Shown in pieces: positions 3,798 through 25,417 of a stretch of 64,000 nt of DNA (position 1 is the first letter of the stretch; each line of letters starts with the position of its first letter). The translations under genes were made by a program, and so were the position numbers. This DNA is from Candidatus Zhuqueibacterota bacterium. Lineage in GTDB: Bacteria > Zhuqueibacterota > Zhuqueibacteria > Thermofontimicrobiales > Thermofontimicrobiaceae. A model generated the notes under the pieces. That model saw only the letters and a list, made by a program, of their open reading frames with translations. It ran no database searches and was not told the DNA's origin. Location of the stretch: NCBI GenBank assembly GCA_049322915.1, contig JBMOPW010000011.1:70642-134641 (forward strand), in the 5' to 3' direction.

Positions 3798-3826
3798 TTG
3801 TATCTTGGATTAAAACTTTGTACATT
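3798..3826 (+). promoter_or_regulatory. Putative sigma70 promoter
   Basis: TTGTAT-N17-TACATT upstream of ATG 3868. Confidence 0.45.
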
Positions 3827-3867
3827 CGCCTCTTTAAATTTTGAAACTGACAAAGAAAGCGCAAACG

Positions 3868-4227
3868 ATGAACTCAAGCAAGAATATTTCAGTCACAGAC
3901 AACGATATCGTTCTGGTTTATATTGAACAACGTCCCACATTTTTCGCCCGAATCGAAGCGATTGCCCCGGACATCAACCGGGGATGGTGGCGCGTGAAGC
4001 TGCTCATTCTTCAGATTCCGCTCATCGTCACGACGTGGATTCTGGATAACGAACAAATACACGGCGCTGAATTTACAATGGGCGGAACACCGATGCGGCT
4101 TGAAAAAGTCGTTGCGCCGCCGGATACCCTTCTCGCTCCAAAGCCAAAAGACACATCATTCGAAGAAGATGCCCAGAAAAATCAACGCGCGCGCATCGTC
4201 TCCCTGAATTCACCAGCCAAAAAGTGA
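3868..4227 (+). CDS. Hypothetical small beta-rich protein
   Basis: Clean ORF between divergent and convergent neighbours, with an upstream promoter; motif FARIE...D...GWW.V.L..L..P....TWIL. Confidence 0.75.
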   Translation: MNSSKNISVTDNDIVLVYIEQRPTFFARIEAIAPDINRGWWRVKLLILQIPLIVTTWILDNEQIHGAEFTMGGTPMRLEKVVAPPDTLLAPKPKDTSFEEDAQKNQRARIVSLNSPAKK

Positions 4228-4232
4228 ACACA

Positions 4233-9065: not shown

Positions 9066-11318
9066 TCATTCCAACAGGATCATTTTTCGAACCTGCTGAA
9101 ATCCGAATGCGTCGAGGCGAATGAAATACAATCCCGACGCCATCTTCTCCCCTGCGTCATTCAACCCATCCCACGCTGCTTCATGATACCCGGCAGAGAC
9201 GCGGTCATTGACCACCGTCCGAATTTTCTGGCCGGCAACGTTATAGATCGTCACATTGACGACGCCGGAATTGGGGGCATAAAATTTTAGCCGGGTACTC
9301 GCGTTGAACGGATTGGGATAATTCTGTTCCAATAAAAATGTTTCAGGAAGCTCGATCGAACCTTCATTTTGTCGGGATTCCACAGCATCGATCACATAAA
9401 AGAAACTCAAAATTCGTTGCATCACATCGATTTGCGCGGAGGCCGGTTCGATCAATTCGAATGGGAAAGTGAAATAAACCAGCTTTGCGTTTTCGGATGA
9501 ACCGCCCTGATAATCCGACACAATTCCCAGGGAATTCAAATACGCCGTGTCCATCAGCGCTGAAGTTGCCGGCAAAATTGGTACCACCGAATCAACAGAA
9601 TCAGCCGGATAGATTTGCGGATTCAGCGAAAATTCCATGCCAACGAACAGGCTATTGGGGAAGCCAACCACCTCTTCCGGCAGCGGTATTTTTGCAGAAT
9701 AATTAGCCCTGCCAATTTCATTCAGGAATAGATTATCTTCTTCGGTTGTGCTGTAGCAATCGCTGTCCATGTCGAGATCCCAGGCGACGTTGGTTCCGCT
9801 GATGAACAGCCGGCCATTCTGGTCAGAAAAGGCGCGCACCAGGCGTTGTTCGATTGGAGAAAACGTCTCATCCTTCTCGCCCTCATCGCCCAGGAACCAG
9901 ATGACAACGAAATAGTCGCTCAACGAAATAGTGCTGTCCGCCACGGCGTCATTGCTGCAGCAGTCGAACGAATAGCCGTTTTCGGAAATGGCGTGACCGT
10001 AGGCAAACGCGAACGAATGGCTGGGCTGATTCCAGGCGCCATTGTCATTGGCGCGATCGAAGCCATCCACAACGAGGATTTTGTAACTCGGATCCGACAT
10101 CTTCACGCCGTACACATCCGAACCGGGGCTCACATTGGGAATGGGCGCGTCATTGACCGCCTCCAGCTTAAAGTAGATGTCATTGGCAACTGAAGTCGCA
10201 AACGTGGCGGTCGTGCTGTCCGGCGGAAGTTTATTTTCATCGTAGCGCAATTTCCAGTTGGCGTTATCGTACGAATAATACAGCCGATACCCCAGTAGAT
10301 CGTCTTCGGGGTTCCGATACCAGGCAATCTGAAATCCCTGCCCCATCTGCCGGATATATTTCAACACCGGCGTCTGTGGTGCGAGAAAATCATCCCGCAC
10401 AACTTCCACCGGTATGTAGGTTGTGTCCGCGTTCTGGCGCGTATCTTCGGTGAAAATCATAATTGTGTACGGCCCGGCAGCGTATTGGGATGTGTCCCAG
10501 TACCCGTTCGCGCTGACAGCGTTCGTCACGGTGTAGGTGTGGCTGGACGTGGTCGAGTATTTTTTGAAGAAGACATTGTGTACATAGCGATTGTCCGGCT
10601 TACTCCCGAACCGAAATCGAACGCCGAGATTGGGCGGTGTATAGACAATGCTGTCGCCATCCGCCGAAAGAATTTTATAGCCGAGCATGTACGTGCCGTT
10701 GTTCAACCGTGAGGCATCCGAGCCCGGAGGGCCATTCTGCTCTTCGACTTTCACGACGATATCAACCTTGCCGGTCACTTTGCCGGCAGTGAATTCCTGC
10801 TCGGTTCCATCAGCGAAAAATTTAACAAAACGAATGACCGGCTGCCATGGATCCTCGTACGGCGTAAATCCGCCGCCGGCCCGGATCGCATTGATTTCCT
10901 GACCATAATTCCCGTCTATGAAATGAATATGTCCCTGACCCGAACGAATGGTGCCCAGAACCGTCACTTCCGCCACAACAGCATCGCCAATATCCAGACT
11001 CGGATTGGGCACAATATGCAGGTAGCAATAGCGTCCCACGCGAACGTAGGAGTCGGTTCCGGTGGGATAAATATCCGTCACCGTGCCGTTGGCAATGGCG
11101 AACACCGGGCTGCCATCCGCTTTGGGAACATCCACGCCATTGTGAAAATGGTCGGAAGTGCCGGTATCGCGAAATTCACAAAAGGTACCCGTGATGTCCT
11201 GAGACTGATGTTTTGGCTCCACCGGCCAGGGATACTGTGCGTGAGCCGCATCGGTTCCGGCGCAGAGAAACCACCAGGACATGAGAATGAGGATTTTCGT
11301 TTTCAATGTATTAGTCAC
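9066..11318 (-). CDS. Secreted M23 metallopeptidase with FN3-like domain and C-terminal FlgD-Ig/T9SS-like sorting domain
   Basis: HNGVD (HxxxD) and HIH (HxH) M23 motifs; QNYPNPFN...WDG C-terminus; likely GTG start at 11318 after GGGAG. Confidence 0.82.
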   Translation of the reverse strand: MTNTLKTKILILMSWWFLCAGTDAAHAQYPWPVEPKHQSQDITGTFCEFRDTGTSDHFHNGVDVPKADGSPVFAIANGTVTDIYPTGTDSYVRVGRYCYLHIVPNPSLDIGDAVVAEVTVLGTIRSGQGHIHFIDGNYGQEINAIRAGGGFTPYEDPWQPVIRFVKFFADGTEQEFTAGKVTGKVDIVVKVEEQNGPPGSDASRLNNGTYMLGYKILSADGDSIVYTPPNLGVRFRFGSKPDNRYVHNVFFKKYSTTSSHTYTVTNAVSANGYWDTSQYAAGPYTIMIFTEDTRQNADTTYIPVEVVRDDFLAPQTPVLKYIRQMGQGFQIAWYRNPEDDLLGYRLYYSYDNANWKLRYDENKLPPDSTTATFATSVANDIYFKLEAVNDAPIPNVSPGSDVYGVKMSDPSYKILVVDGFDRANDNGAWNQPSHSFAFAYGHAISENGYSFDCCSNDAVADSTISLSDYFVVIWFLGDEGEKDETFSPIEQRLVRAFSDQNGRLFISGTNVAWDLDMDSDCYSTTEEDNLFLNEIGRANYSAKIPLPEEVVGFPNSLFVGMEFSLNPQIYPADSVDSVVPILPATSALMDTAYLNSLGIVSDYQGGSSENAKLVYFTFPFELIEPASAQIDVMQRILSFFYVIDAVESRQNEGSIELPETFLLEQNYPNPFNASTRLKFYAPNSGVVNVTIYNVAGQKIRTVVNDRVSAGYHEAAWDGLNDAGEKMASGLYFIRLDAFGFQQVRKMILLE

Positions 11319-12549
11319 GGTTCTCCCGGAAAATTTTATAATTCGAAACAAAGCCCACTGCCAGTTGAGACTGCTCAACATGAACGGTGGGAGTTAATAG
11401 GATATCCGACCCCAGATCAATCATCCAATCGGAAGCGCCGGTCGCGGTGAATTTTTGTACCCTGATCTGTCCGAACTCAAAACGATTATTCTGAAAAACC
11501 GACGTGGCCACCAGCCCAATCACGCCGCCATCGGAATGACCCGTCGTCAGTCGTGCGAAGATACCGGATTCAGATTGAGGCAGTGTGTACATTTTCTGCA
11601 CCATTCCTTTCGGCACATCGACCGAATACAGGCTCTTTTTGTCCGCTAAAAATAAAGTGGTCTCATCCATTGAAAAAGCTGAAGTTCGATAATTACCGGG
11701 TATCTCCATCACGGAATTTCCATCGCTGTCATACACAGTGGTCGCTGCAATCAGGACGTCCTGTTCGGTCAGCGAGTGATGGGCCAACAGCAAATACTGC
11801 CCGCCGGGCGAGACGGTGAACCGTGTGAATGTCGGACAATCCACGGCCTTGCGCCATAATTCTTCGCCATCCAGATTGAAACAGAAAAGCCAGGGTTCGC
11901 CGGATATCAGCCGCAACGTGCCCGGCTCACGCGTCATGGGACGTTTCTGCGCTGCGATGTAAAATCTGCCGCGATCCTCGGCAAGAGCACAGTCGATGGG
12001 TTTTTCATAGTCGAAAATCTCTTCATCGAAAAGCTCGATGTGTGCCGCGAGCTGGCCGGCTTCATCGTACAACTCCGCTGAACCGCGAGCGCCATCCGTT
12101 AATAGCGCACGGCCGGTGCTGAAAGTATACATCGACCAGAGCGGTTCATCGTACGGCTTTTTTTTCTCGAAGCTGTACAGCAGCCTGCCATCCCCGGAAT
12201 GCATGCGATATCGGAAAATTTTATCCTCCGGCGCCAGCGTATTTTCGCCGATCAGTTCCGCACTGCCAATGCAACTCCGATTGGGCGCAATGCTCACAAC
12301 AGAATGGGGCAAATATGGGACATCATTCCGCTCGCGCCCGTTTTCATCGAGGAACCGCAGACTCTCAGTTTCTATTTTCATAAAGGGAAATAGCTGAAGA
12401 TTGGAGCCCAGCCGCCATTGCCAGTCGATCGCTGTGCCCGGACTCTGCCGCGCCATCAGCAACTGCGGCGTCCTTTTCTCTCCGGCTGGCAGAAAAGTAC
12501 TTACTGCCAAAGCGAGGAACACTGTTAAAATGACCACATTTTTTTTCAT
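11311..12549 (-). CDS. Hypothetical secreted beta-rich (propeller-like) protein
   Basis: Start MKKNVVILTVFLALA (signal peptide) at 12549; repeated 'YDxxG/FxxDGxxLW' strands; 3' end overlaps the M23 gene start. Confidence 0.72.
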   Translation of the reverse strand: MKKNVVILTVFLALAVSTFLPAGEKRTPQLLMARQSPGTAIDWQWRLGSNLQLFPFMKIETESLRFLDENGRERNDVPYLPHSVVSIAPNRSCIGSAELIGENTLAPEDKIFRYRMHSGDGRLLYSFEKKKPYDEPLWSMYTFSTGRALLTDGARGSAELYDEAGQLAAHIELFDEEIFDYEKPIDCALAEDRGRFYIAAQKRPMTREPGTLRLISGEPWLFCFNLDGEELWRKAVDCPTFTRFTVSPGGQYLLLAHHSLTEQDVLIAATTVYDSDGNSVMEIPGNYRTSAFSMDETTLFLADKKSLYSVDVPKGMVQKMYTLPQSESGIFARLTTGHSDGGVIGLVATSVFQNNRFEFGQIRVQKFTATGASDWMIDLGSDILLTPTVHVEQSQLAVGFVSNYKIFRENRD

Positions 12550-12809
12550 ATCCGATCCTATCTCTCGTAACCTGGCTGACGCAAACCCCACTGATGGTGA
12601 ATCGGGATAGACATGTCCAGCCCGTAACATCAATGATTGCATGCGTGTGGAACGCCATGCTCCTGACATCAGCCAAGGTGCTTAATCATAATGTTGAACA
12701 GCAGTTAAATTTTTGGAATAAACTCAACTTCAATATAATTTAGAAAAAATATAGAGAAATGCAAGCAGATTATTCCGGCAATAAAAGGCCATGCCAGATG
12801 AATATCGAT

Positions 12810-12920: not shown

Positions 12921-12938
12921 CTGGCATTATATTTGTCA
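12921..12938 (+). promoter_or_regulatory. Putative sigma54 (-24/-12) promoter
   Basis: CTGGCATTATATTTGTCA: TGGCA and TTG correctly spaced (GG-N10-GT); -12 C replaced by T; about 60 nt upstream of ATG 12998. Confidence 0.5.
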
Positions 12939-12997: not shown

Positions 12998-13972
12998 ATG
13001 TTAATAAATACCTTTCTAAACGACCGCTCTCACTTCATACTCATGAAACGAAGCCCAAAAACCAGCAGCGCCGACATCAATAGCACCTATGCGCTCACGC
13101 TGAAAAAAACAATAATCCTGAGCTTGACCTTCATCCTTATTTTCCTGCAACTTTTTCCCCGCCATGCATCGAAACGAGAAGTAAGTATGGAATTAAATAT
13201 TCCCCTCGAGGTCATTGATATGCCGGCAATTGAACCGGAATCGCCCCTTCCAACACCGCCTCCGGTGGCACAGGACGTGATAACGCCATTCATCCCCGTG
13301 GTCAAGGAAGAACAAGAAGACCCGCGCAGCATTCGTGAAAATCTGGAAACAGTCACCCTGGATATGAATCCGGTTACGGATTCCAACCTGTTGAATAACT
13401 CCCAACTAGGCGATATCTCCATGGCCGGTTTCTCTACTTCATACAATCGAAACCAGGGCCGGGTTACTCTCGATATTTCTACAGATAGAAAAACGATAAC
13501 AAGCACGACCCGGAGCAACATCGATTTCAACGTTTCCGCCGGTGCAACGAGACAAAAATTCGCCGAAGAATCCATCAAACTCGATGAACCGGTTCCCGTG
13601 ACCAGGGAGACTCATGTTGAGACACCCGCACAAACGCCAACGACGAACAACGAATTAATCAGTCTCAACGAGAACCAGTTTTTATTGAAAGAATCGGAAT
13701 CGACCATCGGAACGAATGAATACCGGCTCTGGAACAAAATCAATGGCGTCTTTGATCGACTGGATAAAAACCGTTTTGGCGCATTGCCCGATAAAGTTCG
13801 AAGGACAGCATCAGGACTCAGTGTTACCTTTTATTATGGGGATGGAATGCAGCATGATATTTTCTGGTCCAAAGGCGGCAAAGTGATGATCCGCGTGACA
13901 GGTCAGCGTCCGCGCAGTCTCGCCGATGAACTGGGAAAGGCGTTCGATGCTTTATTTCGATTGACTTTATAA
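12998..13972 (+). CDS. Hypothetical membrane-anchored protein with TonB/TolA-like architecture (operon gene 1)
   Basis: One TM helix (TIILSLTFILIFLQLF), Pro-rich segment (PAIEPESPLPTPPPV), Thr/Ser/Asn-rich linker, about 100-aa C-terminal alpha/beta domain; alternative start 13043. Confidence 0.75.
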   Translation: MLINTFLNDRSHFILMKRSPKTSSADINSTYALTLKKTIILSLTFILIFLQLFPRHASKREVSMELNIPLEVIDMPAIEPESPLPTPPPVAQDVITPFIPVVKEEQEDPRSIRENLETVTLDMNPVTDSNLLNNSQLGDISMAGFSTSYNRNQGRVTLDISTDRKTITSTTRSNIDFNVSAGATRQKFAEESIKLDEPVPVTRETHVETPAQTPTTNNELISLNENQFLLKESESTIGTNEYRLWNKINGVFDRLDKNRFGALPDKVRRTASGLSVTFYYGDGMQHDIFWSKGGKVMIRVTGQRPRSLADELGKAFDALFRLTL

Positions 13973-13980
13973 GCGTTACC

Positions 13981-14688
13981 ATGAAAAAATTCATTTTCTA
14001 TTTCGCACTCATCCTTTCATTCGGCTACTCAGCGCCTGGAGCCGCGCAACAGGTTCGGGCGCTTTTCGAGCAGCTTGCCAGAACCGATGTGACTCAGGAT
14101 GTCTACACGCGGTTGAACTTGTGCAAAAAGATCATCGAGATTTGTGAAAACGCGCCGGAACCGGAGTGCTGGTTTTCCAACCTCATGCGCGACGTGTATC
14201 GGTTCAAAGGCAATACCGAGTTCGAAATTTATAAAAAGGAATTGGTGTTCACGCGTTTGACCGACGCTATCAATTCCCTGACCACAAGCTATCATTTTTA
14301 TAAAGATCCTGAAGTTGAATTTCAATTGGGCTATCTCAAAGCGGTGAGCGGGTTGCTGGAAAAAGGTCCCCGGAATTTGAACGGACTGGTCCTCTGCTGG
14401 GAAGCGATTCTGGACATCTATGCCCGGGATAACTGGACCATTTCGCCTCCGCTCATCTCGAAGACAAAACAATTCATCGAGGTAGCCCAGAGGTATGCCA
14501 CGCCTGTGACGAATAACAATTACAGCGGCGCATTTGCGCGGTATATCATCGTGTTAGCATGTGATCTCATGGAGAAGGGAAATCTGAGTCACGCAAATCA
14601 CACTTATTTTCGCGACACCCGGCTGAAGTTTTCCAGCCAGGAAGGCGCACAATGGCAGGAATGGAGAGATACTTCCTCGTCAAAGTAA
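13981..14688 (+). CDS. Hypothetical secreted helical protein (operon gene 2; paralogue of gene 3 N-terminus)
   Basis: Signal peptide ending GAA/Q; aligns by eye with 14770-16203. Confidence 0.85.
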   Translation: MKKFIFYFALILSFGYSAPGAAQQVRALFEQLARTDVTQDVYTRLNLCKKIIEICENAPEPECWFSNLMRDVYRFKGNTEFEIYKKELVFTRLTDAINSLTTSYHFYKDPEVEFQLGYLKAVSGLLEKGPRNLNGLVLCWEAILDIYARDNWTISPPLISKTKQFIEVAQRYATPVTNNNYSGAFARYIIVLACDLMEKGNLSHANHTYFRDTRLKFSSQEGAQWQEWRDTSSSK

Positions 14689-14769
14689 GTTTTTCATTAC
14701 CTGATAGAATCCAATCCTCGTTAATTAAAATTACCCCATATTTCAATATATCAAGTGGAGACATATTCG

Positions 14770-16203
14770 ATGAAGAAGTATGTTGTTTCGACTTTTATGT
14801 TGCTGATGTTGCTGAGCGGCACTCAGGCATTTTCTCAAAACGTCCGCACGCTGTACGACAAAGTCCGCGAGGCCTATCAGGAAGGCAACTATGCGACTGT
14901 GGTCAATTTGTGCAAACAAATCATTGAACGATGCGAGCAGGATTACCCGGACGCAGAATGCCGTTACACGGATGTGATGAAAAATGTCTATCGGTACAAG
15001 GGATTTTCCGAATTCAAAATTTACAATCAAGAACAGAACATGGATCAATTGGAAGAGGGCATTAACTCGCTCATAAAAAGTTATGAATTGTACGGCGATC
15101 CGGAAATCTCATTCAACTACGGGTACATGCAATCCATGCGGGCGATTCGGCTGGAAAATGGGCGCAACCTGACCGGGCTGGTCAATGCCTGGCGCGGCAT
15201 TTTGGGCCTCTATGCCCGCGATGAATGGGTCGTTTCCGACGACTTACTGAACAAGCTAAAAATATTCATCCAGCAGGCAGTGGAAATCTCCATCACCCCG
15301 GCGGACAGCGCGCTGACGACAGGGCGATTCACTTCGTTCATGATTCGCCTCGCCTGTGACCTGGCACAGAAGCGTTCCCTGTCACCGCAGGATAGTCTGT
15401 TTGTCAACATTTACAACCGGCGCGCCATTGACGACGAGTTCAATTTGCGCGGCAACGAATGGCGGGCGCGTGGATTTGAAGCGGAGGAATTGTTCAAGAA
15501 TACTCCCAATGATTCCACCTATCGCATTTGTCGTGGCTATCTTGAATTAGCGCTTCGGTTTGCCAAAAGCACCCGGCGAAAGGCGGAGATGCTCAAAGAA
15601 TTGACCAAGGTGGCTCTTTACATGGAAAAATACGGGAAGAATTCCCAGCGCGAAACCGAGCTTCAATACGCCAGAGAAAAAGCCAGTCAGGCGTATACGA
15701 TTCTTCAGGAACACGGCGCAGATATTTCCAAAGACCTGGAGAATGAAATTAAAAAAGTGTATGGCAACTCCATCTTCAGGCTGGTGGATTACTATTTCAG
15801 CATGGCCACGGCCAAAGACCGCATGAACTCATTTTTACGCGCCAGAAGAATTGGCGAGGAGTTACTTGTTTCGGACAACCAGGGCGGGCTCGTCCAGAAA
15901 TTCAAATGGGAAGGATACGAAGACCTGTATCTGAAACTGTCCGATGTGGGTTACGAGTTGGGCGATGAGCAATTCGCCGTGGACATGGTGGATAAAGCCT
16001 GGAAAGCCATTCTAGAAATTAACCATATCGATGTTCAGCAAATTTACCGATCGGTCCCGTCGCAGACTGCCAAAGAACTGCTGCAGTTCGCCCAGGTTTA
16101 TCAGCAGATTGCGGAGCGCTTCGGGCTGCAATCAGTATTGCACTGGCTGCGACCCATTATTAAAACACTCACGTCCCAATCCTATTTAACCAGTAAAAAT
16201 TAA
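14770..16203 (+). CDS. Hypothetical secreted TPR-like helical protein (operon gene 3)
   Basis: GGAG RBS, ATG 14770, signal peptide ending AFS/Q; TPR-like 'AYQEGNYATVVNLC' and further helical repeats. Confidence 0.85.
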   Translation: MKKYVVSTFMLLMLLSGTQAFSQNVRTLYDKVREAYQEGNYATVVNLCKQIIERCEQDYPDAECRYTDVMKNVYRYKGFSEFKIYNQEQNMDQLEEGINSLIKSYELYGDPEISFNYGYMQSMRAIRLENGRNLTGLVNAWRGILGLYARDEWVVSDDLLNKLKIFIQQAVEISITPADSALTTGRFTSFMIRLACDLAQKRSLSPQDSLFVNIYNRRAIDDEFNLRGNEWRARGFEAEELFKNTPNDSTYRICRGYLELALRFAKSTRRKAEMLKELTKVALYMEKYGKNSQRETELQYAREKASQAYTILQEHGADISKDLENEIKKVYGNSIFRLVDYYFSMATAKDRMNSFLRARRIGEELLVSDNQGGLVQKFKWEGYEDLYLKLSDVGYELGDEQFAVDMVDKAWKAILEINHIDVQQIYRSVPSQTAKELLQFAQVYQQIAERFGLQSVLHWLRPIIKTLTSQSYLTSKN

Positions 16204-16215
16204 ACTGAGGAAGCA

Positions 16216-16764
16216 ATGAGACCATCGATTTTGACGCTGCTATTTTTCGTCGCTCTGTCTCTGACAACACCGCTGTTTGGCCAGTCCGTCATCGAGACTA
16301 AATTTGAACAGCAGATGGTGGAGTATGAAAATGATGTGGTTCGCTGCTATAATGAATTGCAAAAATTCCTTTATGAAAATGAAATGAACCTCTCCGAGAT
16401 GGTCGCCTTTGAAGAGCTGCTATCGATTTATGTCAATCGAATTCTCGAAATATACGAGACCATGGAACGCGTGGCTGGCTCCACTCTGGAGACCTATCGC
16501 GGCGTGGCAGCGCGGGCGCTCATTTTCAGGTCGCTCACCTATCTGGAACGCTCCCGGACCGCGCCTGAGAATTTTGAAAAGGCATTGAAAGATTATAAAC
16601 TGGCGCTGCAGCTTTATCAGAAAGAGACCACGAATCCCATCATGAATAAACGATTACCCTATGAAATCTGGATCGGCCGCAAGATGTACACCCGTCTGGC
16701 CGACCTGCTCGATGATAAAAATAAAGATTTTAATTTACTGAATTCTTTGGATGAAGCGAAATAA
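16216..16764 (+). CDS. Hypothetical secreted helical protein (operon gene 4; paralogue of gene 5 N-terminus)
   Basis: GAGG RBS; signal peptide ending LFG/Q; aligns by eye with 16777-18042. Confidence 0.85.
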   Translation: MRPSILTLLFFVALSLTTPLFGQSVIETKFEQQMVEYENDVVRCYNELQKFLYENEMNLSEMVAFEELLSIYVNRILEIYETMERVAGSTLETYRGVAARALIFRSLTYLERSRTAPENFEKALKDYKLALQLYQKETTNPIMNKRLPYEIWIGRKMYTRLADLLDDKNKDFNLLNSLDEAK

Positions 16765-16776
16765 GATAGGCGCGAT

Positions 16777-18042
16777 ATGAAAAATTGGTTGCAGGGAATT
16801 TTGCTACTGTTCATTCTTTTCGGAGGTCGCTATTGTCAGGCGCAACGCCTCGATCAGATTTTGATCCCCAAAATGGAAAGCTATGAACTGGACATTCAAA
16901 ACACGTATCGGGAATATCAAAAAATTTATTACGAACAGAAATCCAGTCTGGCGGAGTTGCGCGCGTTCGAAGACATCATTTCCGTGTACGTTTCCCAGAT
17001 TCTGGAAATACATGAGACGCTGACCCTGTCCGGATTCAGCAATCTCGAATCGCCGCGCGACATCGCCGCGAGGGCGCTCATTTACCGCGCGCTGATCTTT
17101 CTGGAAAAAGCGCCGCTGAACGTTCACTATTATGAGCAGGCCTGTTACGATTATTACAAAGCGCTCGCCATGTTTGAAGGCGCCAGCGATAAAGTGCCGG
17201 CGCTGTTCAAGCCTTCCCCCAATCCGGTAAAAGTGGGGAACAAGGAGTACACCCGGCTGATCGATGTCATCGATAATAATAGCAGTGAACTGTACGCGTT
17301 TGGCAAGGTGGAATTGAATCTTCAGAATTTTAAAATTACCACGAATCTCAACATCGATGATCTTGAATTCTTTCGCGTGGAGTCCCCAATCGATAAAAAG
17401 AAGTATACCTATCTCCAGGCCGAAAAATTGATCAAGGAAGCGTTTCGAAATGAATTGAGTCAGAGCGGCAGTGGCAATATTTTTCTGGCTCTGCCGGAAG
17501 GATCGTACATCATCCGTTCCAAAAGCAGAAATAGTTCTTCGCGGTATACATACCTGTCGGCAATTTATGTCCGCGCGAATCAGCAGCACAATTACATTGT
17601 GGAACCGCTCATGGACTGGTTCATCGCTTATGAAAATCCAACGACCAGCAAGCCCCAATTCATCCGTCCCAATGCGCAGCATGAATCGCCGGGCCAGGGG
17701 AATGGATACGATAAGCGGGATAAGCCCCGCACTGGCAAACGCGATAAAGATGCCCGGCTGGAATCCATCGAATACCTATCAGGCATTGTCGATTCTTCTC
17801 TGGCGAAAGTGGATGTCAGCCAGATTTTCAATCTGCGCGATGCCTGGATTCGCAGCAAATTCGCCTCGACAGTGGCCGAGGTCATGCTGAATCACATCGA
17901 GTCCCTGACATATTATAACTGCTGGAGCGACTGGATGCTAGCCTGGATCATCTCCCAGGATGTCACGCAGAAATTCAGCCCGGAGACTGAAGTGCCCACC
18001 GAATTGATTAAAATGGTCTACATGACCCTAGGTAAAATATGA
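16777..18042 (+). CDS. Hypothetical secreted protein: helical N-domain, beta-rich middle domain, helical C-domain (operon gene 5)
   Basis: Signal peptide ending CQA/Q; 'LALPEGSYIIRS' Ig/prealbumin-like strand motif. Confidence 0.85.
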   Translation: MKNWLQGILLLFILFGGRYCQAQRLDQILIPKMESYELDIQNTYREYQKIYYEQKSSLAELRAFEDIISVYVSQILEIHETLTLSGFSNLESPRDIAARALIYRALIFLEKAPLNVHYYEQACYDYYKALAMFEGASDKVPALFKPSPNPVKVGNKEYTRLIDVIDNNSSELYAFGKVELNLQNFKITTNLNIDDLEFFRVESPIDKKKYTYLQAEKLIKEAFRNELSQSGSGNIFLALPEGSYIIRSKSRNSSSRYTYLSAIYVRANQQHNYIVEPLMDWFIAYENPTTSKPQFIRPNAQHESPGQGNGYDKRDKPRTGKRDKDARLESIEYLSGIVDSSLAKVDVSQIFNLRDAWIRSKFASTVAEVMLNHIESLTYYNCWSDWMLAWIISQDVTQKFSPETEVPTELIKMVYMTLGKI

Positions 18043-19025
18043 GGATTACTATGACCCTGATGAAGAAATGTATGCTCCTATATTTGACTGGCCTGACCCT
18101 GTCGCTGGCGACTGAGTCGACGGCGCAGTCGACCAGCTATTCCGACTGCTGGAAATCCCAGCAATACACCACGTTGCTGGATACCATGCGCAGCGTGATG
18201 AAAACCAGCATCGAGCCCGAATATCAACAGCACGATTTCATTCAGACGTTTGGCTGCGCTTATGAAGAGGATGACATTCAGCAGAACTCCACTCGTGCGG
18301 TGTACCGCGCTATCATTCAATCCATTCGCAACCGTAAGTTGAGTCTGCGCGATGATCTGGAACGAGTGCTGCTTTCCAAACCACCCCGGCCGGATAATCT
18401 GGCGCGCGAATATTCGATTTATGTCAATATCCCGGCAGAGCCGGAACCCAAAGCGGCGCGCTATGAAATTAAGATATTGAACCTCGAAGCCGTGCCAACA
18501 GTTGAGTCTGAAAAAGCGGTCTGGACACGAATCGTGACGCGCTATGCCTACAAAGAGGATTTCAACATTGCGCCGGCCGCGGACATTACCGCTTCCGAAT
18601 TCGTCAATGTCATGGAAATGTCACAGGAGTTGTTGCAGCTCTCCGAGAAAAAGAAGTTCAACAGACTGAAAAAGTTGTTTTCGTTCGATAATGTCGCCCT
18701 GGCCTATCCCAAGACCATCACAGAGTTGGTATTTGGCGACTCTTTCTATCTGTTCGATGAGACCAAACCGGAAGTGCAATATCAGGGGGTTTTTCTGGGC
18801 AAGGGACTGTTCATTTGCGAGACGCAAAGCGATCAAATAATCGTCAGCAAATTTGGTGAAGAGCGCCTCTATTCGCTGCGGGTGGACATCAACTCGTTCC
18901 GCCGAACGAACAATATTTTTGCTGAATTGAATTACGAGGCGCCGGAGAGTATTTTGCAGTGCCTTTACCTGAAGTACAGTCAGGATAAACCGAGACAATT
19001 GCCGGCGCTGATGGGATTCAAATGA
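18039..19025 (+). CDS. Hypothetical secreted protein (operon gene 6)
   Basis: ATGA overlap with previous stop (alternative start 18051 after GAGGA); signal peptide ending STA/Q. Confidence 0.8.
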   Translation: MRITMTLMKKCMLLYLTGLTLSLATESTAQSTSYSDCWKSQQYTTLLDTMRSVMKTSIEPEYQQHDFIQTFGCAYEEDDIQQNSTRAVYRAIIQSIRNRKLSLRDDLERVLLSKPPRPDNLAREYSIYVNIPAEPEPKAARYEIKILNLEAVPTVESEKAVWTRIVTRYAYKEDFNIAPAADITASEFVNVMEMSQELLQLSEKKKFNRLKKLFSFDNVALAYPKTITELVFGDSFYLFDETKPEVQYQGVFLGKGLFICETQSDQIIVSKFGEERLYSLRVDINSFRRTNNIFAELNYEAPESILQCLYLKYSQDKPRQLPALMGFK

Positions 19026-19147: not shown

Positions 19148-19945
19148 TCAGATTCGTCCTTGAACCAGTCCGGGCCGGGAATCCATGAAAAATTTGATGG
19201 CCTCTTCAATTTTGTTGTAGTCAACCGTCGTATTTTTGCAGGGGCCTTCCGGGCGCTGATTGGGGATACCGATCACGGGAATGTGCTGGACATCGCGAAT
19301 GCCGGACAGCAAATCCCGCTCGCACGCCACGCCAATAACCGCCAGTGGTTTCTCCTCCGCGATGATCTTCCGCGCCAGTTCGCCGCCGGGCACCGTGTAA
19401 ATCAGGCACTGGTATTTCCTGGCCAGCGCGACAATCTCTTTCTGCAATGGCCGGCGCAGACAGCGCGGGAGCAGGATGACAATCCGGCTTCGATTTATCT
19501 TCCAGCGGCCGGTTTGAATGAGCGAGTTGCTGACTTTGATGAACGAATGTCCCATTCGATCGTAGGAAACGCCAAACTTCCTGCCCAGCGCAAGAATGAG
19601 CGGCGTGAGAAACGTGATCGAAAAAGTCTTGTTGCGCAGCCGGACCATCCAATTTCGGTGTGTCACAATCGAGATGACCGTTAGCAGAAAAATTAAAAAA
19701 AGCAGGCCGATGAAGGCATAAATTACTATCTGCAGGATATGGGCAAACCCGGCGTGAAGTTGTACCATGCGTGGTTTGATCAAAAACCAGACCAGAAACA
19801 CTCCTAGTGCGACAAACATCAGAGTTAACACAGCGAAGCCGAGGAACATCCTCTTCCCGGTCTCCACGTTGATTCCCGACACGGAGAGATCGCCGTCCCA
19901 CTCTTCCCATTCATCGCCCAATTTTCTATCGTTGATCGCGTTCAA
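19148..19945 (-). CDS. DUF116 domain-containing membrane protein
   Basis: Two TM helices, then LLPRCL...VPGG.LARK...IGVACERDL.SG...N.RP.GPC.NT.VD pattern. Confidence 0.82.
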   Translation of the reverse strand: MNAINDRKLGDEWEEWDGDLSVSGINVETGKRMFLGFAVLTLMFVALGVFLVWFLIKPRMVQLHAGFAHILQIVIYAFIGLLFLIFLLTVISIVTHRNWMVRLRNKTFSITFLTPLILALGRKFGVSYDRMGHSFIKVSNSLIQTGRWKINRSRIVILLPRCLRRPLQKEIVALARKYQCLIYTVPGGELARKIIAEEKPLAVIGVACERDLLSGIRDVQHIPVIGIPNQRPEGPCKNTTVDYNKIEEAIKFFMDSRPGLVQGRI

Positions 19946-20757: not shown

Positions 20758-22125
20758 TCACTGAATACCATACTTTTCCATTTTGGACAACAGCGTGCTG
20801 CGATGCACGCCCAGCTTCCGGGATGCCTCGCTTTTGTTTTTGCGGCACTGCCCCAGCACGGTCTCGATCAATTGCTTTTCCACTGTGTCCATCACCTCAG
20901 GCAGCGACCTGTCGTCCAGCATTTTCAGCGGCGTTTCCAGCCGGGAATTGCTGACCAGGTAGGACAATGAATCCGCTCCGATAAATCCGCCTTTGCACAG
21001 CACAACGCCCCGCTCGATCACATTTTCCAGCTCGCGCACATTGCCCGGCCAGGTGTAATGGATCAAAATTTCCAAGGCTTCTTTGGTGATGCCCTGAACG
21101 TTTTTCCCGGTCTGAATTTTGTACTTATTCAAAAAGAAATCGGCCAACAATGGAATATCATCCACGCGCTCCCGCAGTGGGGGAATCACGAGGGGGATGA
21201 CATTCAAACGATAATACAGATCCTGACGGAATTCATTGTTTTCAATGGCTTGCTCCAGATCCCTGTTGGTCGCTGCAATGACCCGTACATCCATTTTGAG
21301 CGTCTTTTCACCGCCAACGCGCTCGAACTCCCCTTCCTGCAACGCGCGCAGCAGCTTCACCTGGAGCTTCGGCGATATATCTCCGATTTCATCCAAAAAA
21401 AGTGTCCCGTTATTGGCTAGTTCAAAGCGACCTTCTTTGCATTTAATCGCGCCGGTGAAAGCACCTTTTTCGTGGCCGAACAGTTCGCTCTCCAAAAGAC
21501 TTTCCGCCAGCACTGCGCAATTGACGCTGATCATCGGCTGGGCTTTGCGCGTGCTGTTGTAATGGATGGCGCGGGCGATCAGTTCTTTGCCGGTGCCGCT
21601 CTCTCCGCGAATGAGGACTGTGGAATGGGTGCCGGCCACTTCGCGGATGATGTCGAACACGTCCTGCATTCTTCGGTTGTTGCCAATGATATGATCAAAA
21701 TTATAATCATGGCTGAGCTGATTTTGCAGGTAGCGGTTCTGGTCTTTCAGCACCTTCACGGTGTGCAGCCGCTCAACCATCAGCATCACCTCTTCCATCG
21801 CCATGGGTTTGATGATGTAATCGTACGCGCCTTTTTTTAACGCATCAACAGCCGTTTCAATCGAACCATGCCCGGTGAAAACAATGACTTCGGTCTCAGG
21901 CGAATTCTCCTTGATTCGTGTCAGCAGCTCGATGCCATCCAATTTCGGCATTTTCAAATCGGTGAGAATGATGTGATAATTTTCACGGTGCAGCTTCTTC
22001 AGCGCCATCTCCCCATTGGTTGCCGTCGATACTGAGAAACCCCTTTTCGAAATAATTCCTTCCAACAACGTCACGATTTCCGGCTCATCGTCCACGACTA
22101 GTATTTTCGTTTGATTACGGCTCAA
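20758..22125 (-). CDS. Sigma54-dependent response regulator (NtrC/ZraR-like: REC, AAA+, Fis HTH)
   Basis: VVDDE..LTDLKMP receiver; GESGTGKEL; intact GAFTGA; FLDEIG; WPGNVRELEN; C-terminal HTH. Likely TTG start at 22125 after AAGGGA (ORF track starts at 22215). Confidence 0.93.
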   Translation of the reverse strand: MSRNQTKILVVDDEPEIVTLLEGIISKRGFSVSTATNGEMALKKLHRENYHIILTDLKMPKLDGIELLTRIKENSPETEVIVFTGHGSIETAVDALKKGAYDYIIKPMAMEEVMLMVERLHTVKVLKDQNRYLQNQLSHDYNFDHIIGNNRRMQDVFDIIREVAGTHSTVLIRGESGTGKELIARAIHYNSTRKAQPMISVNCAVLAESLLESELFGHEKGAFTGAIKCKEGRFELANNGTLFLDEIGDISPKLQVKLLRALQEGEFERVGGEKTLKMDVRVIAATNRDLEQAIENNEFRQDLYYRLNVIPLVIPPLRERVDDIPLLADFFLNKYKIQTGKNVQGITKEALEILIHYTWPGNVRELENVIERGVVLCKGGFIGADSLSYLVSNSRLETPLKMLDDRSLPEVMDTVEKQLIETVLGQCRKNKSEASRKLGVHRSTLLSKMEKYGIQ

Positions 22126-22181
22126 TTGACATATCCCTTCATGCGTTACACTATCCTCAACCTCTTCGCCGGCGTGCAGCC

Positions 22182-22368
22182 CCTTGCTCCGCTGGCGATG
22201 CCTCTTCAGCCCCATGTCGTCAGTTCAAGATATTACCATTTTCCATTGAACGATCACCCTGATTTTTCGGGGTGGAATTAGAAAAAATAATATTTTGGAA
22301 ACCGTTTTAACGGTTTCCCACATTAACTACCTTGCTCCCTTAAACTGAAGGCTATGCTCTTCAGCCCC
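22182..22368. repeat. Imperfect intergenic direct repeat flanking a 22-bp palindrome
   Basis: CCTTGCTCC...GC(G/T)ATG(C)CTCTTCAGCCCC at 22182-22213 and 22330-22368; GGAAACCGTT-TT-AACGGTTTCC at 22297-22318. Confidence 0.6.
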
Positions 22369-22406
22369 CTTCTTCAAATCAACCCGAGTCCCTTCCTGAC
22401 TGCTGG

Positions 22407-24257
22407 TCAGTGCGCGCCATTCCTGTAAATCGGAAGATAAATCGTGAACACCGTTCCCACACCTTCCTTGCTTTCCACCTGCACATCGCCTCCTTCTTTC
22501 TTTAAAATCGTATGCGATACATACATGCCCAGTCCGGTGCCCTGTCCCACTTCGCGCGTGGTGAAAAATGGCGAGAAAATGTGCGGCAGATTTTTCTTGG
22601 CAATACCGCAGCCGTTATCCTCAATTTTCACCACCACATTTTCATCCGCTTTCACCAGGGTTGATATTTTCAACTCTCCCCCGTCGGACATGGCCTGTTG
22701 CGCATTGAAAATAATGCTCATCAGCACCTGCTTCAGCGAATCCAGGTTGAAGAAAACATCAGGCAAATCCTTACTGTAGTCCGGTTTGTATTCGATGTTT
22801 CGGGCGCGAAGCTCTTTTTGAATGAGCGATACGGTCTTGTCGATCAATTCGTTGATCCGAATCGGTTCGCACTCAACGCGGGAGCGCCGGGAAAATTCCA
22901 GCAGATTATTGATGATCGTGGATGCGCGGTGAATATTTTTCGAGATCATCTCCAGTTTATCGGCGATGTCAAAATCCTCGTCCTCGATTGATTCTGCAAT
23001 GGAGTAACGCGCCGCCTCGATGATGTTCAAAGGATTCCTGATTTCGTGGGCAATGCCCGAAGAGAGCATGCCGATGGTGGCGAGCTTCTCGGACTGTATC
23101 AGCGTCTGTTGCAACCGCCGCTCCGCGCTTACATCCTGCATGATCATAACCACCTGCTTGGATTGCGTCTCGAAATTTGAAAATGGGTGGCTGCGGATCA
23201 GGTAATTCTCCTGATCCGTGGCGCGCTCCATCATTTCCATTTTTTTCGATTCGAACGTCAACAGCGCGGGACAGCCGGGGCACGGTTCGCTGGTATGAAA
23301 AAAATAGCTGTAGCACCGCTGACCGATCATCGCTTTGAAAGTCGAATGATGCAGTTCCGCTGCTTTTCGGTTAGCCAGGATGATGTTGAAATCCTGGTCA
23401 ATGACATAAATAATATCCAGAATGCTATCGAACAAAAGGCTGAGCCGTTTTTTGCTCTCCAGGATGGCGTCTTCCAGGCGTTTCTTTTCGGTCACGTCGC
23501 GCACAACTTTCTGGATGACTTTGAACGAACCATAATCCACCAGACTCACGCTCACGTCGATGGGCACCCGTTCGCCCTGGCGCGTCAAAATAGCCAGATC
23601 ATCGAAACTACCGTGACCCTGCTTTTTTGTCTGCGCATTGATCTGCTTGAGCCGGGCCAGGTACTCGACCGGATGAATCTGGCGGACGAACATGCCAATT
23701 AACTCCTCGCGACTATAACCGGTCAATTGAGAGGCGCGGCGATTGACGTCCAATATTTTCCCGCTGGTCGGATGTTCAATGAAGATGGCGTCATTGGCGC
23801 TTTCAATGAGATTCTGATATTTGCGCTCCGTCTGAAACAGCCGTTGTTCCAGTTCAAACTTATCAATCGCCTGCTGAATGACGCGCGGCAGCACATGCAT
23901 GTAGCCTTTGTCTTTGATGAGATAATCATACGCGCCCTGCTTCATTGCTTTGACCGCGATTTTTTCATCCCCTTTTCCGGTGACCAGCACCACAGGAATC
24001 TCCTGCCGCAGTTTTTTCACCTCGCTCAAAATCTCCAGCCCGGACATCATCGGCAGGTCGTAATCGAGAATGACCACATTCACCGGCCGTTCGCTTCTGA
24101 GAATTTCCAGGCATTCCGGCCCGGACTGGGCAACGATCACGTCGAATTTGACCTCTTGCTTTTTGAGAATGATTTCCATCAACTGAGCGTGATCCACATT
24201 ATCCTCGACAAGCAGCACATGAATGGGTTCAGAACGAGTCATTTTTTGTTCCGGCAT
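22407..24257 (-). CDS. Hybrid histidine kinase REC-PAS-PAS-HisKA-HATPase (NtrB-like transmitter)
   Basis: LVEDN..ILDYDLP receiver; two PAS domains; QSEKLATIG..SGIAHEIRNPL; DNGCGI; PFFTT; GTGLGM. Confidence 0.92.
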   Translation of the reverse strand: MPEQKMTRSEPIHVLLVEDNVDHAQLMEIILKKQEVKFDVIVAQSGPECLEILRSERPVNVVILDYDLPMMSGLEILSEVKKLRQEIPVVLVTGKGDEKIAVKAMKQGAYDYLIKDKGYMHVLPRVIQQAIDKFELEQRLFQTERKYQNLIESANDAIFIEHPTSGKILDVNRRASQLTGYSREELIGMFVRQIHPVEYLARLKQINAQTKKQGHGSFDDLAILTRQGERVPIDVSVSLVDYGSFKVIQKVVRDVTEKKRLEDAILESKKRLSLLFDSILDIIYVIDQDFNIILANRKAAELHHSTFKAMIGQRCYSYFFHTSEPCPGCPALLTFESKKMEMMERATDQENYLIRSHPFSNFETQSKQVVMIMQDVSAERRLQQTLIQSEKLATIGMLSSGIAHEIRNPLNIIEAARYSIAESIEDEDFDIADKLEMISKNIHRASTIINNLLEFSRRSRVECEPIRINELIDKTVSLIQKELRARNIEYKPDYSKDLPDVFFNLDSLKQVLMSIIFNAQQAMSDGGELKISTLVKADENVVVKIEDNGCGIAKKNLPHIFSPFFTTREVGQGTGLGMYVSHTILKKEGGDVQVESKEGVGTVFTIYLPIYRNGAH

Positions 24258-24494
24258 GAAACTTCCTCGCAGGTCGGTTTATGAAAGAATGAATTGATCG
24301 CCGCAGATCACCCTCGAAATCCACCGCGCCAGGCGCGCCGCCGAAGCATGGCACCCCGGCAGATGCGAATGCGGACAGTCGCAATTGCGGTATCCGTTCG
24401 CTCATGGGTGAGGCGTCATTGGCGTTGAGGCGGCAGTCCCCGCGGCGATTGGGTCAGCGGCGGGTCGCCCAATTCCGGCGTGGTTGGGCCTTGC

Positions 24495-25328
24495 TCAGTA
24501 GATGATGTCCCCATCGTCAAAATCCGAATCCGATTCAGTTGCAGCGTTTCGCGGTAACGTGAAGAAGAACGTGCTGCCCTTGCCGCGGGCAGATTCCACC
24601 CATATTTCGCCGCCATGTTTTTCAATGATGCGTTTGGTAATGATAAGCCCCAGCCCGGTTCCCCGCGCGCCCTTTTTATTTTCCAGCCGACCGAATAATT
24701 GAAAGATTTTACTCTGGTCGGCCAGGGCAATGCCCACGCCATTATCCTCCACATAAAATTTGTGAAAAATCTCTCCGTCAATATACCCGACTTCCACAAC
24801 CGGCGCGTCGGTATTTTTGGAATATTTAATGGCATTGCTCAGTAAATTGGTCAGCACCCGAAGCATGAAACTGCGGTGGCAAAAGATGTGCGGTAAATTT
24901 TTGGAGATCGCTATTTTCACCTGGCTGGTTCGAATCTGAAAACTCAGTTCGTCCATGGCCTCGCGCAGCAGATCGGCAAAATCCACCCGTTCGCATTCTT
25001 CGAGATCCACGTGGATGCGGGTGTAATCGAGCAGGCGTTCCACGAGTTGTTCCATTTGATCCAGATTGTTGACGATGCGTTCGAGGTATTCCTGTATCTC
25101 CTTGTCCAGGTCTTTGATATGATAAACCTGCAGCAGTTCAGAATAGCCGCGCATGGAGACGATGGGCGTTTTCAGTTCGTGCGACACCGTGTACAGATAC
25201 TGGTGCAGTTCCTCATTTTTCTCCTTCAGCAGCGCCTCCCTGGATTTCAGCTTGCGCCGCAATTCCAGGTTCTCGCGCTTTAGCGTGTCTACATCCACTC
25301 TTATCTCTGTTGTGTCCATTGCTGTCAA
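24495..25328 (-). CDS. Histidine kinase without sensor domain (coiled coil-HisKA-HATPase)
   Basis: VSHELKTP, NLLSNAIKY, DNGVGI, GTGLGL; only about 45 aa precede the H-box. Confidence 0.9.
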   Translation of the reverse strand: MTAMDTTEIRVDVDTLKRENLELRRKLKSREALLKEKNEELHQYLYTVSHELKTPIVSMRGYSELLQVYHIKDLDKEIQEYLERIVNNLDQMEQLVERLLDYTRIHVDLEECERVDFADLLREAMDELSFQIRTSQVKIAISKNLPHIFCHRSFMLRVLTNLLSNAIKYSKNTDAPVVEVGYIDGEIFHKFYVEDNGVGIALADQSKIFQLFGRLENKKGARGTGLGLIITKRIIEKHGGEIWVESARGKGSTFFFTLPRNAATESDSDFDDGDIIY

Positions 25329-25417
25329 TCCCCTCGTTGGAAAAAACTATGGAATATCAGTCGGCATGCAATCCGGCATTCAGGCAACCGGCTGGCTCAA
25401 CCTGTGTTTGAGCGCTG

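Follow-up and report, generated by a model that had tools for sequence, protein, structure and literature searches.

What do six adjacent genes do together when each encodes an envelope protein that no described family claims? The question is raised by a cassette in a 64,000-nucleotide stretch of a Candidatus Zhuqueibacterota genome (GenBank assembly GCA_049322915.1, contig JBMOPW010000011.1, forward-strand positions 70,642 to 134,641), hereafter the window, whose first letter is position 1. Six open reading frames (ORFs) of the + strand, from 12998 to 19025, follow one another at gaps of 8, 81, 12, and 12 nt with a 4-nt overlap at the last junction, and the flanking genes on either side both lie on the - strand; we call the six, in order, G1 to G6 (Table 1). 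The original prediction, made from the letters alone, described this layout with gaps that match ours exactly, and took the genes for an operon of unknown envelope proteins whose products form a periplasmic complex tethered to, and perhaps energized through, the inner membrane. Our own answer, offered tentatively and as a serious possibility rather than a probability, keeps the tether and drops the energization: the cassette may encode a motor-less periplasmic scaffold under sigma-54 control, anchored in the inner membrane, reaching the cell wall by way of a pseudo-endopeptidase, and restricted to some families of KSB1.

That these are real genes is plain from other genomes, in which orthologues are conserved in the same order. 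We examined 34 related loci (30 from one set and 4 from another), and in all 34 the core genes G1, G3, G4, G5, and G6 form one block, complete in 26 and cut by contig ends in 8, with no core gene missing within the blocks; synteny in relatives, which the original prediction had proposed as a check, thus speaks for a conserved unit. The order is G1-(G2)-G3-G4-G5-G6 in the window and 11 loci and G6-G1-G3-G4-G5 in 21, the two differing solely in the position of G6. Every locus that spans both has a G1 orthologue as the immediate upstream neighbor of G3, or of G2 if there is one, orthologues of G4 occur in every locus spanning its position, and conservation across clades does not extend to the flanking genes. 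Within the cassette G3 is conserved best; it is present in 15 of the 41 sampled genomes of the class at identities of 58-92%; in a large protein collection it is represented by 83 clusters, all hypothetical, with labels that read KSB1, “Calditrichaeota,” or plain “bacterium” metagenome-assembled genomes (MAGs). Of 167 genomes of the phylum, 39 have a match to a G6 profile. In 38 of them the match is single, and in the other one (G142) a gene lying in two pieces on separate contigs is matched twice. The positive genomes are restricted to six families (17/21, 10/10, 6/13, 2/5, 2/2, and 1/1), and KSB1 as a group is called uncultured in a PeerJ abstract. Going by their run labels, the sequencing runs that contain this DNA are biofilm and cave metagenomes, with no RNA run among those listed. 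Among 1.84 billion representatives, the same profile finds only 22 clusters, including five distant full-length relatives (P0087, P0089, P0090, P0098, and P0099), each a singleton on a contig of 1.3-56.9 kb, with 10.4 kb for P0098 and 56.9 kb for P0099. A metagenome scan with P0099 for the surroundings of distant G6 proteins found nothing, and one with the alignment of the distant relatives returned 4 loci, all of them ordinary KSB1-type cassettes.

Family searches were uniformly negative. Pfam and NCBIfam gave nothing above cut-off for any of the six proteins, PADLOC gave one 13-bit chance hit for the six plus the ORF upstream, profile searches against PDB sequences gave 0 matches for G1, 0 for G3, and 0 for G6, and Pfam on 31 G5 and 32 G6 orthologues gave nothing consistent. 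The six LuxR/SmcR matches that G5 drew among PDB sequences (E 0.47-0.60) were taken as chance. Literature searches on the phylum name, on ring proteins, and on non-catalytic NlpC/P60 domains turned up no paper on the cassette, which, being nameless, was not itself the target of any of them. The view of the locus as an operon of unknown envelope proteins therefore stands, in the sense that it is a conserved unit of exported proteins belonging to no described family in these searches; the families and their combination are not described, and the folds, as discussed below, are familiar.

Export is read from the N-termini. Those of G2 to G6 each have a short basic stretch, then a hydrophobic stretch, and an end of the A/G-x-A/Q type, and in the models of G3 and G6 the N-termini are lone helices followed by low-confidence residues; the signal peptides seen by the original prediction are thus there, and that they are cleavable is likewise a reading of the sequence. 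None of the six proteins has a Por_Secre_tail or FlgD_ig match in Pfam, in keeping with the claim that G2 to G6 lack the FlgD-Ig sorting tail of the window's secreted enzymes; the neighboring gene at 9066-11381 carries both domains. The two short-plus-long paralogue pairs are equally sound: G2 aligns with the N-terminal half of G3 at 39% identity over 205 residues (E 7e-50), and G4 with the N-terminal part of G5 at 39% identity over 140 residues (E 6e-31). Alignments of G4/G5 with the G2/G3 profiles are confined to the signal peptides, and the two pairs are unrelated to each other in sequence. Since G2 is found only in the window and 7 close relatives (7 of the 34 related loci), it is probably a young, clade-specific, truncated duplicate of the N-terminal half of G3.

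The inner-membrane end of the putative complex would be G1. It has one strongly hydrophobic stretch (residues ~31-57, Kyte-Doolittle 19-residue mean 1.97), which bears out the membrane anchor first proposed for it, and its predicted layout is a ~35-residue cytoplasmic tail, a transmembrane helix at ~36-56, a spacer at 57-110 (the Pro-rich spacer of the original prediction, with 20% Pro and 20% Asp+Glu), a polar, low-complexity linker of ~120 residues at 111-230, and a C-terminal domain at 231-324. This last domain has W245, R254, G261, W290, G294, G302, and E311 invariant and is confined to G1 orthologues, as all 54 of its 54 matches are such proteins, 53 of them of 309-341 aa and one of 217 aa. 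The Protein Atlas offers no more than a best feature score of 0.83 for the C-terminal part of G1, where the tool's bar is 0.9, and its model of that part is poor (mean predicted local distance difference test score [pLDDT] 0.42), so that the PepSY- and DUF3568-like matches it lists, at template-modeling (TM) scores of 0.45-0.61, are leads only. The cytoplasmic tail (window 12998-13102, residues 1-35) is itself conserved, with F-x-L-x-K and then a Thr in most of the 31 sequences aligned. Because this conservation extends upstream of Met16, where the Atlas record for G1 starts, the longer start at 12998 is the likelier one.

The partner that G1 would hold is G3. Its model (pLDDT 91.2, predicted TM score [pTM] 0.81) is all helical, with 24 helical segments, and its structural matches are tetratricopeptide repeat (TPR) proteins and their like: the SPY TPR at Z 17.9, LGN at 15.2, OGT at 14.5, and BamD at 12.3. 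Foldseek returns 62 matches at E<=0.001, TPR proteins first, with E values of ~1e-5 and TM scores of ~0.27. The model thus presents G3 as a generic TPR-like scaffold with no specific relative, and the original expectation of periplasmic helical or TPR proteins is borne out by this model and its matches. Pfam's TPR models match none of G2, G3, and G5, and for G4 they stay below threshold (SHNi-TPR at 18.7 bits against a cut-off of 21, TPR_1 at 15 against 27.8). G5 consists of a G4-like helical N-domain, a conserved middle, a variable low-complexity linker (variable columns at ~355-400), and a conserved Trp-rich C-terminal region in which W383, W386, and W390 are invariant. Its Atlas model is poor (pLDDT 0.50), with a best feature score of 0.82 against the same bar and PEGA clusters appearing only at 0.76; the idea of a PEGA-like beta-sandwich in its middle was dropped because hhalign against the PEGA domains of 10 neighboring kinases gave a probability of 0.2%.

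Because the G1 gene directly precedes G3 (or G2) in every locus, this was the pair chosen for complex prediction, which was run three times with G3 residues 22-477 and the G1 C-terminal domain, alongside 3 controls. The interface score (ipSAE, interaction prediction score from aligned errors) was 0.75, 0.71, and 0.75 in the three runs and 0.00 for the best of the 3 controls; the partner had a pLDDT of 81-85, and the runs agreed in at least 78% of contacts. By way of calibration, the mark set for ipSAE was reached by 116 of 157 solved complexes and by 2 of 215 mismatched pairs, counts that hold only roughly because we used our own alignments. On G3, the predicted interface spans residues 287-471, in the C-terminal half, which is the half that G2 does not have; on G1, it is formed by the first helix and the C-terminal helix of the C-terminal domain. 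Invariant or nearly invariant residues in it are Y242, N246, D253, R254, K257, and R259 on G1 and R337, F343, S344, W380, G382, and E396 on G3. The prediction supports, rather than shows, binding of the G1 C-terminal domain to the C-terminal half of G3, and for this one pair it fits the notion, already in the original prediction, of an inner-membrane-tethered complex.

At the opposite end of the putative complex would be G6. It is very strongly conserved, with 55 invariant columns in 32 sequences, including C37, C73, C308, S186, and KFGEE, and its model (pLDDT 90.0, pTM 0.83) has two domains. The N-domain, residues ~57-176, is a two-layer alpha/beta module with the invariant motifs QTFGCAYE and NxxxAVxRAIxQSxxNR. 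Among known structures it best matches a 352-residue chain from the LPHT ring of the Vibrio flagellum (8z5n_5; Z 8.3, rmsd 2.8, 84 residues aligned; the tool does not give which ring protein this chain is), followed by Lpp20 at Z 5.9, RcsF at 4.7, and the IgaA periplasmic domain at 4.5, and all of these Z values are middling by the note of the aligner itself, which gives best Z values of 7-8 as common among unrelated folds. The C-domain, residues ~186-296, has FGD, GKG, and KFGEE invariant and is modeled with an NlpC/P60-like, that is papain-like, fold: more than 20 NlpC/P60 or CHAP chains match residues 190-293 at Z 4.5-7.6, among them 7v6s_A (7.6), MepS (7.4), NlpC1 (6.9), and CwlO (6.4). 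Foldseek gave no match for G6 at E<=0.001, so that the NlpC/P60 reading needed a second aligner; Foldseek's local matches to NlpC/P60 proteins have probabilities of 0.92-1.00. Taken as a family signal this is consistent and of moderate strength.

What the C-domain has lost is its set of catalytic residues. By hhalign, the NlpC/P60 catalytic His aligns to Y248 of G6, which is Y, I, V, or F in orthologues, and the third triad residue aligns to C262, which is not conserved; in the model, the helix N-cap expected to hold the catalytic Cys is S186. This Ser is invariant in KSB1 G6 proteins and kept in 3 of the 5 distant relatives (P0098, P0099, and P0089, in the last of which an alignment gap offsets it by one column). 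Kept in all, the five distant relatives included, are an N, an A, the FGD, a G of the GKG stretch (which reads Y-L-G-K-G within KSB1), K-x-G-x-E, and an Arg. The domain thus lacks the catalytic Cys-His dyad or triad. The original prediction had recognized no catalytic motif in any of the six genes; for G6 this holds as regards the catalytic positions, and it misses that the protein nonetheless carries an NlpC/P60-like fold. The signal peptide of the window's G6 ends in LATESTAQS and has no lipobox Cys. A lipobox-like L-x-x-C is found in 5 of the 32 orthologues (loci L015, L028, L034, L045, and L047) and in the distant relatives P0098 and P0099, so some orthologues are predicted lipoproteins.

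The cassette also appears to have a promoter of its own. The motif TGGCATTATATTTGT sits in a 328-nt AT-rich intergenic region ahead of G1, where TGGCA(C/T)-N4-ATTTG(T/A) is the only conserved island, its TGGCA and ATTTG invariant in 7 of 7 aligned loci. The consensus for sigma-54 is TGGCAC-N5-TTGC, and the GG-to-G spacing of the motif is that of a sigma-54 promoter. In a relaxed form, the pattern precedes G1 in 16 of 30 loci and G6 in 1 of 31, the background expectation being 0.035 per 410 nt; where G6 lies upstream of G1, the motif sits in the G6-G1 spacer. From this difference, G1-G3-G4-G5 looks like a sigma-54 unit, on which G6 may ride along in this clade while having its own promoter elsewhere. 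The genome has rpoN (E 5.2e-59), and a sigma-54-dependent response regulator (20758-22215) lies with its kinase 1.7 kb downstream of the cassette on the other strand. A sigma-70 consensus scan (18 promoter-like sites, 9.2±3.9 expected) and a terminator scan (5 terminator-like sites, none after G6, 7.0±2.8 expected) were uninformative.

As a separate observation, the genome contains 102 occurrences of this sigma-54-type pattern, where roughly 36 would be expected at equal base frequencies. Examples outside the window are C7:107532, C14:641292, C7:398629, C2:98836, and C27:24477, and the genes so preceded include ones that start like DnaK, ClpB, Lon, two small heat-shock-like proteins, and several response regulators, all named on the strength of no more than their first residues. 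It would be unusual for sigma-54 to drive a chaperone regulon.

Put together, these parts suggest how the device might be built. The cassette would be transcribed from the sigma-54-type promoter just upstream of G1. G1 would hold one helix in the inner membrane and reach into the periplasm on its long, Pro-rich, disordered linker, its small C-terminal domain docking on the C-terminal TPRs of secreted G3. With G3, the exported helical proteins G4 and G5 would make up a non-enzymatic scaffold, to which this clade has added the truncated copy G2. G6 would be the other end, facing the wall or the outer membrane and anchored as a lipoprotein in some lineages, and would join a module resembling ring proteins and lipoproteins to a dead NlpC/P60 domain. 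If that domain binds peptidoglycan stem peptides instead of cutting them, or holds a partner hydrolase, then the complex would connect the inner membrane with the wall or the outer membrane, or else position and regulate wall remodeling, in either case with no motor. Of this picture, the data show the gene order, its conservation, the folds predicted for G3 and G6, the lost catalytic residues, and the promoter motif; the G1-G3 contact is an in silico prediction, and we infer the other contacts along with peptidoglycan binding and the physiological role.

Several points weigh against this construction. The contact prediction covered one among the possible protein pairs, G1-G3, and its interface is not significantly more conserved than the rest of the two proteins: on G3 the score is 0.72 against 0.76 for the remainder (permutation p 0.84), and on G1 it is only slightly higher, at 0.67 against 0.60 (p 0.09), so conservation adds no independent support. 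The NlpC/P60 assignment of G6 rests on middling fold matches (Z 4.5-7.6); no Pfam NLPC_P60 match appeared at E<=1 in any of 32 orthologues, and hhalign of G6 against two of the genome's NlpC/P60 domains gave a probability of 5.6% (E 0.0069) over 49 columns around GD...YLG. The very strong conservation of G6, with its 55 invariant columns, its C37, C73, and C308, and its QTFGCAYE, would fit an enzyme with a new active site as well. G4 and G5 have no fold assignment. The -12 element reads TTGT or TTGA instead of TTGC, and 14 of the 30 loci have no match to the relaxed pattern upstream of G1. Finally, peptidoglycan binding by G6 is argued by analogy, and what the cassette does for the cell is a role that we infer from its parts.

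What, then, of the other things that such a set of proteins could be? The original prediction leaned towards a TonB- or TolA-like energized machine, in which G1 would transduce proton-motive force from a motor of the ExbBD, TolQR, or MotAB type, and the general layout of G1, an N-terminal transmembrane helix, a Pro-rich spacer, and a small C-terminal alpha/beta domain, is indeed that of TonB and TolA; it is also a layout that is not specific to TonB. G1 has no TonB_C (PF03544) or TolA match in Pfam at E<=1, although the TonB_C model recovers 7 genuine TonB_C genes from other parts of the genome; a profile of 30 G1 C-terminal sequences, set against 5 of those 7 domains, gave an hhalign probability of 0.15%; and the Atlas structure search with the poor model of the C-terminal part showed no TonB or TolA cluster among the 10 matches listed. 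The transmembrane helix of TonB and TolA is marked by a conserved His, in an SHLS-type motif, and that of G1 has none in an alignment of 31 sequences (consensus LIxSLxxxIxxFR). As for the motor, the genome's 9 MotA/ExbB genes could in principle act on G1 in trans; all lie on contigs other than the window's, several beside genuine TonB genes, and nothing points to one that serves the cassette. Nor do such genes accompany it, as a tblastn search with the 9 MotA/ExbB and 5 TonB_C segments found no match in the window or among the 43 related loci covered (627 kb altogether). The energized machine is therefore very improbable, and neither the TonB/TolA likeness nor the expected company of ExbBD- or MotAB-like genes is upheld. 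An active enzyme is another alternative. The unusual conservation of G6, its peptidase-like fold, and the existence of adaptor-enzyme pairs of the NlpI-MepS type (as structure entry titles have it) could all be accommodated by a wall- or lipoprotein-processing complex in which G6 works from a non-canonical site, Cys73 or Ser186, with the TPR proteins as adaptors. We consider this unlikely. In the five distant relatives, C73 is kept in one (P0099), C37 in three, C308 in four, and S186 in three; the residues invariant across all relatives are structural or charged; the canonical His and third triad positions fall on non-conserved residues; and C73 lies in a strand of the N-domain, outside the papain-like domain altogether.

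Two further readings start from the company that the cassette keeps and from the look of its parts. In 10-11 of the 34 loci, all in one family-level clade, a PEGA-domain Ser/Thr kinase, an FHA plus FG-GAP protein, and a PP2C phosphatase are encoded divergently upstream of G6 (at L031:2478-7492, with equivalents in 9-10 further loci), which invites the idea of an envelope sensor reporting the state of the wall or outer membrane through the G1 helix and tail to this kinase-FHA-PP2C module. The conserved, mostly Thr-containing tail of G1 would suit such a role, as would the weak resemblance of the G6 N-domain to RcsF (Z 4.7) and the IgaA periplasmic domain (Z 4.5), although by the aligner's own note both scores are at noise level. 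The window's genome has the trio as well, at C26:10808-17738, where a sigma-54-type motif, TGGCATAGTATTTGC, stands ahead of the kinase ORF at a distance of 89 nt; of 10 relatives, 3 have a motif like it in front of the kinase. All 39 of the 39 cassette-positive genomes, moreover, have the FHA protein. Against these stand the confinement of the adjacency to one clade, the placement of the trio and the cassette on different contigs (C26 and C11) in the window's own genome, as of the FHA gene and the cassette in genome G025, and the FHA protein's presence in 30 genomes that have no cassette (69 of 167 genomes, a count that includes G158 and G162, both flagged unpublished, against 39 of 167), because of which the nesting may be phylogeny alone. 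Relatedness by itself could explain both the adjacency and the nesting, and we find the sensor doubtful. An elaboration of it, a trans-envelope device specific to part of the KSB1 phylum in which a sigma-54-induced tether or sensor has G1 as stalk, G3-G4-G5 as platform, G6 as reader of peptidoglycan, and the G1 tail as the element signaling to kinase-FHA-PP2C, we likewise regard as a minor possibility. Lastly, the proteins might form a platform on which a surface polymer or an organelle is assembled or exported, similar in construction to the TPR and lipoprotein components of systems for exopolysaccharide, pili, or flagellar rings. A TPR superhelix paired with a (lipo)protein whose N-domain matches an LPHT ring chain (Z 8.3) and Lpp20 (Z 5.9) brings these to mind, and sigma-54 often controls functions of the cell exterior; however, the surroundings of the cassette in the 34 loci have no conserved gene for a glycosyltransferase, secretin, pilin, flagellar protein, or transporter, the cassette is self-contained and moves as a block, and a Z of 8.3 over 84 residues is within the range reported for unrelated best matches. 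Such a platform is improbable.

The motor-less scaffold has precedents for each of its pieces, in RipD, in NlpI-MepS, and in Tol-Pal with CpoB. In the Tol-Pal system, TolA is a membrane stalk, CpoB (YbgF) a periplasmic TPR protein, and Pal a wall-binding lipoprotein, and by analogy TolA would correspond to G1, CpoB to G3, and Pal to G6. Unlike Tol-Pal, the cassette has no TolQ/TolR-type motor, no TolB propeller, and no OmpA-like domain, and no ExbB/MotA-family gene lies near it in any locus; G1 has no sequence likeness to TolA or TonB, and its linker is Pro-rich and disordered where TolA has a long helix. The likeness to NlpI-MepS(-Prc) of E. coli lies in the combination of a periplasmic TPR protein with a protein of NlpC/P60 fold. 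Going by their entry titles, PDB 8xud and 8xup show the TPR adaptor NlpI bound to the NlpC/P60 protein MepS, and one of the structures that the G6 C-domain matches best is MepS (8xud_I at Z 7.4 with 114 residues aligned, 8xup_J at a Foldseek probability of 1.00). The Pfam and PDB-sequence searches gave no sequence homology between the cassette proteins and this system; G6, in contrast to MepS, lacks the catalytic residues; G3 has a plain signal peptide and would be tethered through a separate membrane protein, G1, where NlpI is itself a lipoprotein; and the cassette has no Prc-like protease.

For the dead domain, the closest parallel is RipD of Mycobacterium tuberculosis, whose NlpC/P60 domain, according to a published account (PMC12067865), has its triad replaced, binds peptidoglycan, and is proposed to recruit proteins. 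RipD and G6 would share an NlpC/P60-like fold with no catalytic residues, and it is on this analogy that G6 may bind peptidoglycan. RipD differs in being a single protein of a Gram-positive-type envelope, with a C-terminal pentapeptide repeat and with no TPR or tether partners, and G6 differs in its extra N-terminal alpha/beta domain; RipD is not among the structural matches listed for G6, which proves nothing either way. The accessory rings of the Vibrio flagellum are the last comparison. MotX carries a TPR-like Sel1 repeat, and the H/T-ring proteins FlgT, FlgP, MotX, and MotY resemble the cassette proteins as periplasmic accessories that combine a repeat protein, small lipoprotein-like alpha/beta modules, and a wall binder. 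The LPHT ring is described as comprising FlgH, FlgI, FlgT, FlgP, MotX, and MotY in a preprint (bioRxiv 10.64898/2025.12.04.692373), and the crystal structure of FlgT (3w1e) is in the Foldseek list for G6 at E 0.029. Set against this likeness, the neighborhood of the cassette is free of flagellar genes, the sequences show no resemblance, and the match covers 84 residues at a Z common for unrelated folds.

Table 1. Positions of the cassette genes, their domains, the promoter-like motif, and the adjacent genes in the window.
Feature	Position	Strand	Description
G1	12998-13972	+	324-aa ORF; predicted bitopic inner-membrane tether
G1 C-terminal alpha/beta domain	13688-13969	+	residues 231-324; predicted G3 docking module
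G2	13981-14688	+	235-aa ORF; exported short paralogue of G3 N-terminal half
G3	14770-16203 (ATG, 477 aa; alternative GTG start 14755, 482 aa)	+	exported, TPR-like superhelix (model)
G4	16216-16764	+	182-aa ORF; exported ~160-residue helical protein
G5	16777-18042	+	421-aa ORF; exported, helical N-domain
G6	18039-19025	+	328-aa ORF; exported two-domain protein
G6 N-domain	18207-18566	+	two-layer alpha/beta module (model)
G6 C-domain	18594-18926	+	NlpC/P60-like (papain-like) fold (model)
Sigma-54-type -24/-12 promoter-like motif	12922-12936	+	TGGCATTATATTTGT; starts 76 nt upstream of G1 ATG
Upstream neighbor	11311-12669	-	452-aa ORF, divergent from G1
Downstream neighbor	19148-19945	-	DUF116, E 1.4e-32

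The upstream neighbor has no Pfam or PADLOC match, and its product has a hydrophobic N-terminal stretch beginning after ~40 residues. Its 3′ end runs 71 nt into the next gene, an M23 gene with a type IX secretion system tail (9066-11381), when the latter is read from its longest-ORF start (11381), and because of this overlap the true start of that gene is probably further downstream. Beyond the downstream neighbor, a dense run of signaling genes occupies 20758-31571 on the - strand and includes the sigma-54 response regulator, a hybrid PAS histidine kinase, a small histidine kinase, and two GAF/PAS histidine kinases of ~1000 aa. Three of the related cassettes have features of their own. In L045, ~1.3 kb lie between G3 and G4 (11410-12689), which are otherwise 0-90 nt apart, likely through an insertion; in the MAG contig of L039, G5 is split into two overlapping ORFs of 290 and 173 aa (3370-4715), either by a frameshift or by an assembly error; and L060, a metagenome contig of 6261 nt with a cassette fragment, encodes a protein with 83% identity to G4 in DNA of 36% G+C, as compared with ~47-50% for the window region.

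What this locus contributes is, in the first place, a strictly syntenic set of five genes, single-copy save for the clade-specific G2, that has no family assignment anywhere. The envelope biology of KSB1 is known from genomes only, because there is, to our knowledge, no cultured member. Six unknown genes have now become a testable model, with a membrane stalk on a TPR platform, a pseudo-peptidase at the wall end, and sigma-54 control. If the trans-envelope device outlined above were the correct one, the five core proteins would be the founding members of new families; and if the motor-less scaffold does not hold, what is left is five new, cleanly delimited protein families on which structural work can be done. 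If it does hold, it would add a motor-less linkage of the inner membrane to the cell wall, and a further example of a dead hydrolase reused as a binding module.

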